A stretch of 62,198 nt of DNA, counting the filler, from Rhabdomonas costata (lineage: Eukaryota), in the NCBI GenBank assembly GCA_019059605.1. It is 26 parts of 26 records of this genome, joined end to end, with 100 filler letters (N's around TTAATTAATTAA, not from the genome) between each part and the next. Parts side by side here need not be neighbours in the genome. Positions count along the whole stretch, not along the records: positions 16,777 to 19,099 come from JAHMHO010004208.1; 25 more parts are not named here. One strand, 5' to 3'. The position numbers were made by a program, and so were the translations under genes. Numbering within the stretch: position 1 is the stretch's first letter; each line of letters begins with the position of its first letter. The notes below the pieces were generated by a model. The model did not search any database and was not told the DNA's origin. It worked only from the letters and a program-made list of their open reading frames with translations. Below are positions 16,777-21,175 of this stretch, one piece after another.

Positions 16777-19009
16777 TGTGGTGGGTGGACACTGTCCGGC
16801 GTGTTGTGGAGGGTGTTTTCGAGGTTCAAAAGGCCTACCTGACGTTTGTGCTCAAAGAAACTTGGGACGAAGCAAAGGTCCTGCCCCTAAGTGGATATTT
16901 ACTAAATTTCGTTGAACAGGACAAGTAATGCAGAGCACTGCCATTTTTCCTCAGGCGCAGCTCAGGGCCCAAGAGATGTTCACTCGCATGTTTCAAATGA
17001 AGTTTCTTCCTCCTGGTCGAGGCTTGTGGGCAATGGGCACCGCAATCGTGCGCAACCGGGGACTCGGCGCCGCTCTGAACAACTGTGCGTTCTGTTCCAC
17101 TGAACACTTGGACATTAACCCTGCTGCTCCTTTCTGCTTTCTGATGGACGCCTGCATGTTGGGTGTTGGAGTGGGCTTCGACACTTCCGGTGCCGGTAAA
17201 ATCGTTGTGGGAGAGCCAAGCCTACCTTCAGAAAAGTATGCAATTCTTGCAACAACGCGCCAAATTTTGACCCCCCGGAACCATTGAATTGTCCCTTTAC
17301 GGTACAGGTACGTTGTCGCCGACAGTCGCGAGGGCTGGGTGGAGTCGTTGGAAAAACTCCTCCTGTCGCACTTTCGTCGTTCACCGAAATTGGAGTTCGA
17401 CTACTCCACCATTCGGCCCGCAGGGACACCACTCAAAACATTTGGTGGGGTTTCCTCTGGCTGTGAGCCTCTCAAGCAGATGCACGAATCTGTCGTCGCA
17501 GTGCTCGAACGGAACAAGAACGCGGTGCGTTTGACACGTGTGCTTCCTGATGCACTTTTGCAAAAGCACTGCAAACGCGCTGCAAAAAAGGACGTTGTGC
17601 TTCGTATTTTTGTTTGGAAGAAGTGGTTTGAACCATGCGAATTTTCACTTTTCCTTCTTGGTCTTTTGTGTTCGCTCCCGCCCACAACGTGATGTGTGGA
17701 CAACTTGCTCTGAATGAATGATCGAAGCCGTTGTTTGCTGAAGATTCGTCTTGGCGGGGGCTTTGGTTTTTGCAAAGAAAGAAAGAAAGAAAGAAAGAAA
17801 GAAACTCACCCTTTTTTGGGCCCTTTTGGGGCCTTTTTTTTTTTCACCTTTTCAGGCATTGTTTCGGGTTTTATAACAGCATATTGTGCCTCAGCTTTGG
17901 GCCGGGGCTGCACAACATACCAAAGGGAGAATGGTTGTCCAAAAGGAGATATGCTTGCCGGTCTGTACTCACAGCGAAATTCTGCAAACACACACCGAAA
18001 CTAGTTTTCTGCTGGCTCTCGCTCGAACGTCGGCCAGCTCACCCAAGTGATGGTTGGACAACTTGCTCTGAAGTCAAATGAGCGAAGACGACGTTCCTGA
18101 ATTTTTGTTTCGAAACTGAACAGGTAAAAGGCAACCCAAGATTGCGTACCAAGAATCTGAATTGAGTTTCGAGTTTCACATGAACTTTCGACACTGAGTT
18201 CTGCAGACGGCTGAAAACTCATGTGCCGTCCCGTTTCTCTGGTTTCTGCCTTCTGCTCCCGTTCTGCGCAGCCCATCTCTGTGACAACGATTGTGGATTT
18301 GATGAATCTCATTGGCAAATGCGTGGTGGCTGGCAACATTCGCCGCTCCGCAGAAATAGCGTTTGGGGACGCTTCCAGCGACGAGTTCCTTAACCTGAAA
18401 AACTACGAGGCGAATCCCCACAGAGCGGTAGTCTCGTCTTTTTGGTCTTGTTTGTTAGAAAGAGAAAATGAAATGGCGTTTCCATGTGTGTTACTATCTT
18501 TCAGGACTATGGCTGGACTTCCAACAACAGCGTGTTTGTAAAGGTGGGCTCCGACTACACCTTGGCCGCAGACCGAATTCAAAAGAACGGAGAGCCTGGC
18601 TTCGCGTGGCTGGAGAACATGCAGGTTGTCCCCGTTTCGGTTAAATTTTTCTACTTGAGACCAAGAGAAATTCTTTGCCGGAGTTGTTTCCCGTGGTGTG
18701 CCTTCTTCTTAGGCGTTCTCCCGAATGAATGGCAAGGCAGACCACCGGGACGCCTCCGTCAGAGGCGGCAATCCTTGTCTAGAGCAAAGTCTTGAGCACA
18801 TGGAACTCTGTTGCCTTGTGGAGACTTTTCCAACCCGACACGAAACTCTTGAGGCTTGTTTCCTTCTTTGTGGTCCAATGATCTTTGTTTGGAATAGAGA
18901 AAATCCTCTTCCTTTTCCTTCACAGGACTTCAAAGAAACGCTTCGCTGTGCACTTCTGTACGCCAAAACGGTCACCCTCATCCCCGTTCATTGGGAGGAA
19001 ACCCGCAGG
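16777..19009 (+). CDS. nrdJ: Class II adenosylcobalamin-dependent ribonucleoside-triphosphate reductase (monomeric RTPR type), partial, 7 exons
   Basis: Exons 16777-16877, 16955-17235, 17308-17524, 18272-18427, 18505-18624, 18713-18853 and 18926-19009 splice in frame. Motifs: [86 protein letters not shown], catalytic [17 protein letters not shown], and LYAKTVTL. Confidence 0.95.
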
Positions 19010-19010
19010 G

Positions 19011-19046
<36 letters not shown>

Positions 19047-19304
19047 GTGTGGAGAGAAACAGCAGACAAGCTCGACTTCATCACAATGACCCAACCACCN
19101 NNNNNNNNNNNNNNNNNNNNNNNNNNNNNNNNNNNNNNNNNNNTTAATTAATTAANNNNNNNNNNNNNNNNNNNNNNNNNNNNNNNNNNNNNNNNNNNNG
19201 GTTGGGGGGTCACAAGAGAAGCTCATGAGGCATACGTGAAGGGATACCGACACGTAGACGTATCCACCCACGCCCACGCCCACGCCCACGCCCGTACATC
19301 CCGC

Positions 19305-19883
19305 TCACTGGACAACTCGCACAGAACTGCCTGCTTTATTCATAGTAATTACCACGTAGGCGTCCTCGGTGAAGCCCAGCGGCACGGGGGCGGGGGGGTC
19401 TCCCCCGCCCACCACAGCGGTGCCATTGACGGCAATCACGACGGTGCCGCCCGCGGGGTCCTCGAAGTTGCTGCGGTCCACGCGAAGCTCTACCCTGTCC
19501 CCGACCTTCATGGCGATCCCAGAAAACACTTCCCGAGAACCATTGTGAAAGTGACCGCCGTTATCGAGTATGCACAGCCCTGTGGACCACTTTCCGTTTC
19601 CAGGCCACGAACCCAGCGGCTGCTCCAGGTCGGTGCAGAAGCTCACCGGGGACAGCCCAAAGAAGATACGGCCCTCAGGATGGGCGGTAATTTTGAAGCT
19701 GACTGTGGTTAGGCCTTCCTGTCCTACACACAGCAAAGCCTCCAAGCGGGCATTGTCGAAGCTGTCGCCTGCTGTGTGGCGAAGCTCCCGGCGGGCAGTG
19801 CCCGGGAGGGCCTCGAACCACTGCGGGGGGCACGCCGTGGCGGCCTCAGCGAAGGCCGAGGGCTGTGCCCACTTCCGCGGAAC
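19305..19883 (-). CDS. Terminal exon encoding a SPRY/B30.2-like (ConA-fold) domain
   Basis: 579-nt GC-rich exon after an AG acceptor, ending in a stop. VSFKIT..IFFGL..PLG..W..HNG..MKVGDRVELRVD..GTVVIAVNG..AYVVITM..GSSVRVV fits the SPRY pattern. Confidence 0.7.
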   Translation of the reverse strand, partial: VPRKWAQPSAFAEAATACPPQWFEALPGTARRELRHTAGDSFDNARLEALLCVGQEGLTTVSFKITAHPEGRIFFGLSPVSFCTDLEQPLGSWPGNGKWSTGLCILDNGGHFHNGSREVFSGIAMKVGDRVELRVDRSNFEDPAGGTVVIAVNGTAVVGGGDPPAPVPLGFTEDAYVVITMNKAGSSVRVVQ

Positions 19884-21175
19884 CTTTTTCGAAAGAAAAA
19901 AACACAAATTGGAAGGGTGAACAAAGCGAATTTCAGAGGAGCACCAACAGAAACAGGGACCAAAACTGGCAGCACCGATAGTCTTGAGAGACGTCAGGGT
20001 CAGTGCATGAGAGAATCTCACGCTGGCCCCAACACTCTGGTTGAAATAATTTCTGCATGAGTGCTGAACAAGGAAGTTGGATGGGTTCCTATTGATATGA
20101 GGCGAAGCAGCGACGAAGGAAATAGAAACCCAGAGGGATTAAAACTAATGATGACAGTTCAGAGCTGGTCCTAAACCATGGGGAACCATTAACATCAACG
20201 ATGGGGAACAGCAATAGAGCTGATATATATTTCCGGCGTGCCGTTTTCGTTGTTGGTTGTGCAACTGCTAATGATGCTTTCTTTATAGTAAGGCAAGCCA
20301 ACATTAAAACCTTAATCAGGTTTGCCCACAAGTAAAAGGAAGGAGCGGACCCACAAAAGGGTGTGGCTCGGCAAAAGCAGCCTTCGCTCGTTGTCGGCGC
20401 TACTGGTAGATCCATCCCGAAAAGACCTTCGCGGGGGAGCATCCCGCTGCCGTAATTAGTAAATAGCATACAGCATTTTTAATATCCTACTTTGATGCAG
20501 GCAGGCCGCAGGGTGGGGGAGGAGGAGGAAGACTGTGTGCTGCTTACGTGGTGACCGAGCGTTAGATATCCTGGAGAGAGAGAAAGTTTTCATACTTATC
20601 TATTCGCTATTGCTAGCAAGACTGCATAGCATGCAGGGCCTTTGGAGGCAAAAAGGAGGATCAAGACCAGGATTGAGTACGCAATGTAAAATAATTGCTA
20701 ACCAGCATCAATATGCTAAACCTGCCACAGATGAAATCAAAGGTAAGCAGCAGCTTTCATCATCGAAGACGCCACGTTCTCTGCTCAAGTCCAGATCCCA
20801 CACGCTTCCATTTGGTTGTGGCAGTTTGAGAGCGGTAGGATTCAGTTCACTTGCTGGGAAAGTGGACAAATTCGAAGTTGAGATACGGGTGCTTGGTTCA
20901 TTGTGGCAGTCGGTGAGGGAGCTGCGGCACAGGCTGGTGGAGCAAACTTTCAGGGAAATCGCTAGGTTCGCGCAGCAGCAGCCTGTGTGGCGAGTAGGAG
21001 CCATGCGAATGAGTTAGGATTGTGCAACGGGAGGATAAAGAAGTTTTCATCGCCAATAAACACTGCCGAGTGGAACCACTTTTTCTCGATGGCGTTCCTA
21101 ATTCTCTCAGCATCAAAACTCAAGTTTCGAAAACCCCTTATTCGCTTTATTCGTCCGTGTGAAGTTCCAGCAACT

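Follow-up and report, generated by a model that had tools for sequence, protein, structure and literature searches.

The window, by which we mean the whole 62,198-nucleotide stretch of Rhabdomonas costata DNA analyzed here, is parted by 25 spacers of 100 nt each (N plus a fixed linker) into 26 contigs of about 2.3 kb. As the contigs strung together in the window are unrelated, the DNA flanking the gene described below is uninformative about it, and adjoining window DNA was ruled out as its genomic context. One contig, JAHMHO010004208.1 (C4208), carries about half (365 of 757 aa) of a gene for a predicted monomeric, adenosylcobalamin (AdoCbl)-dependent class II ribonucleotide reductase (RNR). 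Its features are listed below, with residues numbered as in the database protein P0001.

16777..19099, no strand: whole contig, 2323 bp between two artificial spacers.
16782..16877, plus strand: exon 1 of the contig, residues 123-154, in the RNR_Alpha domain; the contig lacks its 5′ part and the exons before it.
16878..16954, plus strand: intron 1, 77 nt, GT-AG, phase 0; site also in paralog 2, read through in P0003.
16955..17235, plus strand: exon 2, residues 155-248; ALNNC holds the redox Cys198 (L. leichmannii C119).
17236..17307, plus strand: intron 2, 72 nt, GT-AG, phase 2; common to paralog 2.
17308..17524, plus strand: exon 3, residues 248-320; PF21995 insertion domain, a typical feature of monomeric class II RNR.
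17525..18271, plus strand: intron 3, 747 nt, GT-AG, phase 0.
18272..18427, plus strand: exon 4, residues 321-372; GNIRRSAE motif.
18428..18504, plus strand: intron 4, 77 nt, GT-AG, phase 0; common to paralog 2.
18505..18624, plus strand: exon 5, residues 373-412; SNNS and GEPG motifs.
18625..18712, plus strand: intron 5, 88 nt, GT-AG, phase 0; common to paralog 2.
18713..18853, plus strand: exon 6, residues 413-459; finger loop N432-P-C434-L-E436, then C445 (L. leichmannii N406, C408, E410, and C419).
18854..18925, plus strand: intron 6, 72 nt, GC-AG, phase 0; in paralog 2 the donor at this site is GT.
18926..19009, plus strand: exon 7, residues 460-487.
19010..19099, plus strand: start of intron 7, GC donor followed by a GT microsatellite; the gene resumes on contig C469.

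The seven exons splice without a stop codon. The six complete introns comprise five GT-AG and one GC-AG, and three of them would shift the frame if retained. GC content is 0.53-0.56 in the exons and 0.36-0.47 in the introns, with window contigs at 43-56%. A protein search with exon 2 returned P0001 (eukprot:RCo028955, 757 aa) at 100% identity; RCo0 identifiers denote R. costata proteins (PMC8219788, excerpt). The product spliced from 16782 equals residues 123-487 of P0001 at 365 of 365 positions and spans all six junctions, the support for which is this one database protein, of transcript origin according to its source label and PMC8219788 (excerpt). Such a match cannot be due to chance. The initial annotation, made from the DNA alone, had proposed seven in-frame exons, at least six spliceosomal introns, and intact NPCxE, ALNNC, and ELCCL motifs; every junction is borne out, and NPCLE, ALNNC, and ELCCL are all present in the spliced product. 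This is confirmed as a genuine spliced nuclear gene whose GT/GC-AG introns are removed in a junction-spanning product, and GT(GC)/AG introns are described for R. costata, a heterotrophic euglenid with a facultatively anaerobic mitochondrion (PMC8219788, excerpt).

The assembly (97.2 Mb, 104,289 contigs) was searched for the remainder of the gene. Contig C469 carries five exons on its minus strand, from 3536 to 1889, with four further GT-AG introns and the terminal stop; these exons agree with P0001 at 269 of 270 residues across four junctions. At residue 679 the genome has N and the database protein D, an allele or a sequencing error. C4208 and C469 both end in or near the GT repeat of intron 7, do not overlap, and are joined via P0001 only. 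A search of the assembly failed to find the 5′ exons (residues 1-122), matching only paralog 2 and the AT-rich copies described below. In total, the gene comprises no fewer than 12 exons and 11 introns. A tryptophan codon readable at 16779-16781 is absent from P0001, and the coding sequence on the contig therefore begins at 16782. Most window contigs carry a short G/T-rich tail at the start and a short C/A-rich tail at the end; because these resemble amplification or library artifacts, contig-end bases are untrustworthy.

Several smaller features were seen at and beside the locus. GC donors occur at 2 of the 11 introns, which are consecutive (18854-18855 and 19010-19011); the first of these donors is GT in paralog 2. 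By eye, intron 3 (17525-18271) contains an AAAG repeat and seemingly two diverged copies of a short stretch, at about 17690-17720 and 18045-18075. P0003, a 191-aa protein from an 889-bp contig of another fragmented genome, reads through the intron 1 site and ends at the intron 2 site; these intron positions are thus conserved beyond R. costata. On the next contig of the window, a 277-codon open frame (19305-20138, minus strand) has by eye the look of a SPRY-type beta domain; it matched nothing in Pfam at E 0.01.

Sequence alone assigns the family unambiguously: the product is a monomeric class II RNR (NrdJm/RTPR), as initially annotated. Full-length P0001 scores 354.8 bits against the RTPR model TIGR02505 (cut-off 340.05) and stays far under the cut-offs of the dimeric NrdJ models (56 against 399.95 for TIGR02504), with no match to TIGR02506 (NrdA) or PF00317. 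Both PF17975 and PF21995 pass their cut-offs, in exons 2 and 3 of the window as well as in P0001. The sole solved-structure match of P0001 is L. leichmannii RTPR (PDB 1L1L, E 6.5e-93), with which C198, N432, C434, E436, and C445 align in register at C119, N406, C408, E410, and C419. A further C739-x4-C744 pair near the C terminus is encoded on C469. We take C434 to be the thiyl-radical cysteine, C198 and C445 the redox pair, and C739 and C744 the re-reduction pair.

By homology to L. leichmannii RTPR, homolysis of AdoCbl would generate a thiyl radical on Cys434, which would take the 3′-H of the substrate with the assistance of Glu436 and Asn432. The Cys198/Cys445 pair would be oxidized as the 2′-OH is lost, and the Cys739-x4-Cys744 pair would hand reducing equivalents back from thioredoxin. 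The specificity site would lie within the single chain, formed from the insertion domain. Enzyme activity and an NTP substrate are thus predictions; the class II reaction requires B12 and does not require oxygen (PMC3605638, excerpt). The L. leichmannii enzyme has the alpha domain, insertion domain, barrel, and five catalytic residues in common with the R. costata enzyme, but it is bacterial and intronless, lacks the 80-residue N-terminal extension, and is far more remote than the nearest uncultured homologs.

Five further contigs (C44944, C13134, C27663, C32215, and C27228; 49-53% GC) carry non-overlapping exons of a second gene, on the assumption that they form one gene, here called paralog 2. 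Where compared, it is 73% identical to the window enzyme. Read by eye, eight of the nine comparable intron sites, those after residues 154, 247, 372, 412, 459, 575, 643, and 698, coincide between the two genes in both position and phase; site 604 is absent from paralog 2, which has sites of its own at about 595 and 526. The common introns place the duplication after intron gain and so support the view that the gene is old and domesticated. The proposal of an old, domesticated acquisition rather than contamination accordingly stands, upheld by the splicing and by this paralog, and the gene is presumed to have come ultimately from bacteria or phages.

Foreign class II RNR DNA is nonetheless present in the assembly. 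Four contigs of 22-28% GC (C74232, C17610, C27839, and C17414) carry intronless pieces from two or more genes; these are 77% identical to each other where they overlap and 44-50% identical to the host enzyme. The C17610 copy is truncated beside a broken Methylase_S (restriction-specificity) gene, the C17414 copy adjoins a group 1 glycosyltransferase, and two GVMAG contigs are among the eight loci related to these copies, which are probably giant-virus DNA. On account of their low identity and distant branch, they were ruled out as the donor of the host gene. They do show that the assembly contains foreign sequence, and one might suspect that the window gene too is a bacterial, phage, or giant-virus contaminant, or a pseudogene. 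Against this stand its eleven spliceosomal-type introns and host-like GC content, the open full-length product, the paralog with common introns, and the placement of the AT-rich pieces elsewhere in the tree; the junction-spanning protein match refutes both ideas, and we consider their probability negligible.

Searches of the assembly for class I RNR returned no match to the small subunit PF00268 or to PF00317, in contigs so fragmented that residues 1-122 of the RNR gene itself are missing. Both matches to PF02867 were class II. The positive control, thymidylate synthase, was recovered as four exon hits spanning the family. An exon of cobalamin adenosyltransferase (PF01923), a follow-up search target of the initial annotation along with the class I subunits, was found on a contig of 54% GC, and methylmalonyl-CoA mutase gave seven hits. 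Because part of the RNR gene is itself missing, the absence of class I is unproven; class II is probably the only RNR class of the cell. With the control and both B12-related families found and class I not, the suggested B12-dependent dNTP synthesis is likely, and the organism is expected to require B12. E. gracilis is reported to have class II RNR only (PMC3605638, excerpt).

To place the enzyme, 32 rows picked from 193 were aligned over 375 C-terminal columns and analyzed under LG+G4, with two long phage outgroups and P0003 left out; the bootstrap was not fully settled. For a 255-row FastTree tree, 168 viral and metagenome loci contributed a further 58 non-redundant rows. In the 32-row tree, the window enzyme forms one branch with P0002 and P0138 (support 100/99), paralog 2 forms a second with P0004, P0005, and P0377 (92/87), and the two branches are united (98/97). 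P0467 is a 407-aa fragment with a GGOE01 identifier, a prefix that marks Euglena longa transcripts (bioRxiv 10.1101/573709, excerpt). It is 62% identical to the window enzyme and joins the window group with support of 93/97 in the 32-row tree, just under the starred level, and of 0.986 in the 255-row tree; orthology to Euglena rests on this one fragment. No row named Euglena gracilis was among the 120 matches listed per protein search, and the E. gracilis enzyme may sit inside the clusters of P0004 or P0005. Although the initial annotation implied that the gene was a surprise, it had also held that close grouping with the Euglena enzyme would make it expected; the enzyme does group with that of E. 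longa, and the finding is largely expected.

Two AT-biased sequences fall within the euglenid group. P0231 (FYMINK 0.38), which has an intein-like insert, pairs with the E. longa enzyme as its sister (100/99). P0006 (FYMINK 0.31) is placed as sister to the window clade (95/86). Their position means that more than one entry of the gene into euglenids is possible. Scans for the loci of four proteins recovered only relatives: at 64% identity or less for P0005, at 50% for P0006, at 60% or less for P0231, and at 70% or less, in partial segments, for P0467. The cluster of P0005 (705 aa, paralog 2 branch) is recorded on a 123,548-bp contig with metagenome sources; an intronless P0005 on that contig would point to viral capture of a euglenid gene.

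The E. gracilis class II RNR is Q2PDF6 (Torrents et al. 2006, as cited in PMC3605638 and PMC3019208, excerpts). Like the R. costata enzyme, Q2PDF6 and P0467 are monomeric, AdoCbl-dependent class II enzymes of a euglenid seemingly without class I, and P0467 has diagnostic positions in common with the window enzyme. On the R. costata side are two paralogs and a D-box-like N-terminal tail, and P0467 lacks a C-terminal insert found in the R. costata enzyme. Nor is Euglena the lone exception among eukaryotes, most of which use class Ia enzymes: there are reports of monomeric class II RNR in dictyostelids, Phytophthora, Naegleria, Capsaspora, choanoflagellates, green algae, early-diverging fungi, haptophytes, and chlorarachniophytes (PMC3019208, PMC3605638, PMC8085122, and bioRxiv 10.1101/2023.06.07.544158, excerpts). 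Dictyostelium and most early-diverging fungi with NrdJm also keep class I (PMC3605638, excerpt; PMC8085122). The four other eukaryote-sourced NrdJm rows here, of which Balamuthia mandrillaris P0034 is the named representative, are of the same subclass and 59-63% identical to the window enzyme over the core, but they branch apart from the euglenid group. Nearly all database neighbors are uncultured viral or metagenomic NrdJm of about 58-65% identity, intronless and often intein-bearing, and no such homolog whose genomic context is known lies within the euglenid group. For cultured phages, identity peaks at 43% among the 30 best of 1222 records. We found no literature on the class II RNR of Rhabdomonas in a search that left most subscription papers outside its reach, and none on cobalamin-dependent class II RNR in giant viruses; the main text of PMC8219788 contains neither B12, cobalamin, nor RCo028955.

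These trees raise the possibility that euglenids acquired their enzyme apart from other eukaryotic NrdJm, possibly via giant viruses and perhaps repeatedly within euglenids. Constraining the euglenid group (P0231 and P0006 included) to join the four other eukaryote-sourced rows was rejected (p-AU 0.0075), and the supported positions of P0231 and P0006 point the same way, as do, for the viral route, the two GVMAG contigs related to the AT-rich copies. A euglenid group without P0006, however, was not rejected (p-AU 0.305), a species name is attached to just one of the four other rows from eukaryotes, and the test used LG+G4 on 375 columns under a backbone of mostly low resolution. Published trees place E. 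gracilis, Dictyostelium, and oomycetes in a single clan of eukaryotic monomeric NrdJ (Lundin 2010 and Crona 2013; PMC3019208 and PMC3605638, excerpts). None of the 58 added viral and metagenome rows entered the euglenid group, and viruses may equally have captured the gene from euglenids. Because the published taxa are outside our set, the model is simple, and the groups were named after the tree was seen, we treat separate eukaryotic origins as a lead only, and the acquisition scenario as a whole as tentative and rather doubtful.

The N-terminal extension of P0001 admits two readings of how the enzyme is deployed. Residues 3-11 of P0001 and its ortholog P0002 read RxxLxxxxN, and a KRRK patch comes next. 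Mammalian class I RNR is divided between R2 and p53R2, a cell-cycle-regulated and a constitutive copy. The window paralog might likewise be regulated by the cell cycle and nuclear, through an APC/C D-box and a patch resembling a nuclear localization signal, with the other paralog constitutive. The motif occurs in the first 25 aa of only those two among 340 full-length homologs, arises in 0.2-0.3% of shuffled extensions, and is absent from P0004 and P0005, which are of the other paralog type; exons of APC10 are present in the assembly. It also fits the published consensus RXXLXXXXN/D/E, and mouse R2 is destroyed by APC/C-Cdh1 (PMC3356048, excerpt). Yet the motif was spotted post hoc, short degron motifs are often false, and the extension lies outside the window and among the residues missing from the assembly. 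The two carriers, 86% identical over the core, are not independent. The basic-residue pattern was discarded as evidence for a nuclear signal, being found in 153 of the 340 homologs, and no literature on a D-box in class II RNR was found, most subscription papers being outside the search. Taken together, a class II analogue of R2/p53R2 is a conceivable reading that we would not favor on present evidence.

Alternatively, the extension could be a mitochondrial presequence and the enzyme could supply mitochondrial dNTPs. The extension starts M-L-R, and by eye the eukaryote-sourced P0031, P0034, and P0051 have Arg/Ser-rich, presequence-like tails, in contrast to the D-box-like tail of the R. costata enzyme. 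In that enzyme, however, residue 8 of the extension is acidic, as is a run at 26-29. Acidic residues are atypical of mitochondrial presequences. Moreover, RNR II is described as cytosolic in algae (bioRxiv 10.1101/2023.06.07.544158, excerpt), and we regard mitochondrial targeting as improbable.

The locus is thus confirmed as a real gene of the right family in an expected lineage. With high confidence, we read it as a vertically inherited, expressed euglenid nuclear gene for NrdJm/RTPR, one of two old paralogs, in a cell where class II is probably the only RNR class. New in detail are the paralog pair, the D-box-like tail, and the two AT-biased, virus-like sequences within the euglenid branch. 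A bolder history, in which euglenids separately acquired a B12-dependent RNR, lost class I, duplicated the gene after intron gain, placed one copy under an APC/C D-box and a nuclear signal, and exchanged the gene with giant viruses, is unlikely to hold in full; if true, a single-chain, prokaryote-type enzyme converged on the regulation known for the class I small subunit.

With this gene, the class II-only RNR state known from Euglena probably reaches a primarily heterotrophic euglenid as well. This suggests that reliance on B12 for DNA synthesis is old in euglenids and not tied to the plastid. An oxygen-independent RNR also fits a facultatively anaerobic cell (PMC8219788, excerpt). If functional, the D-box-like tail would reveal how cell-cycle control came to be imposed on a foreign single-chain reductase once class I had been lost. 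It would also allow a direct test of the division arrest of B12-starved Euglena, in which nuclear and cell division halt (PMC2107772, excerpt).
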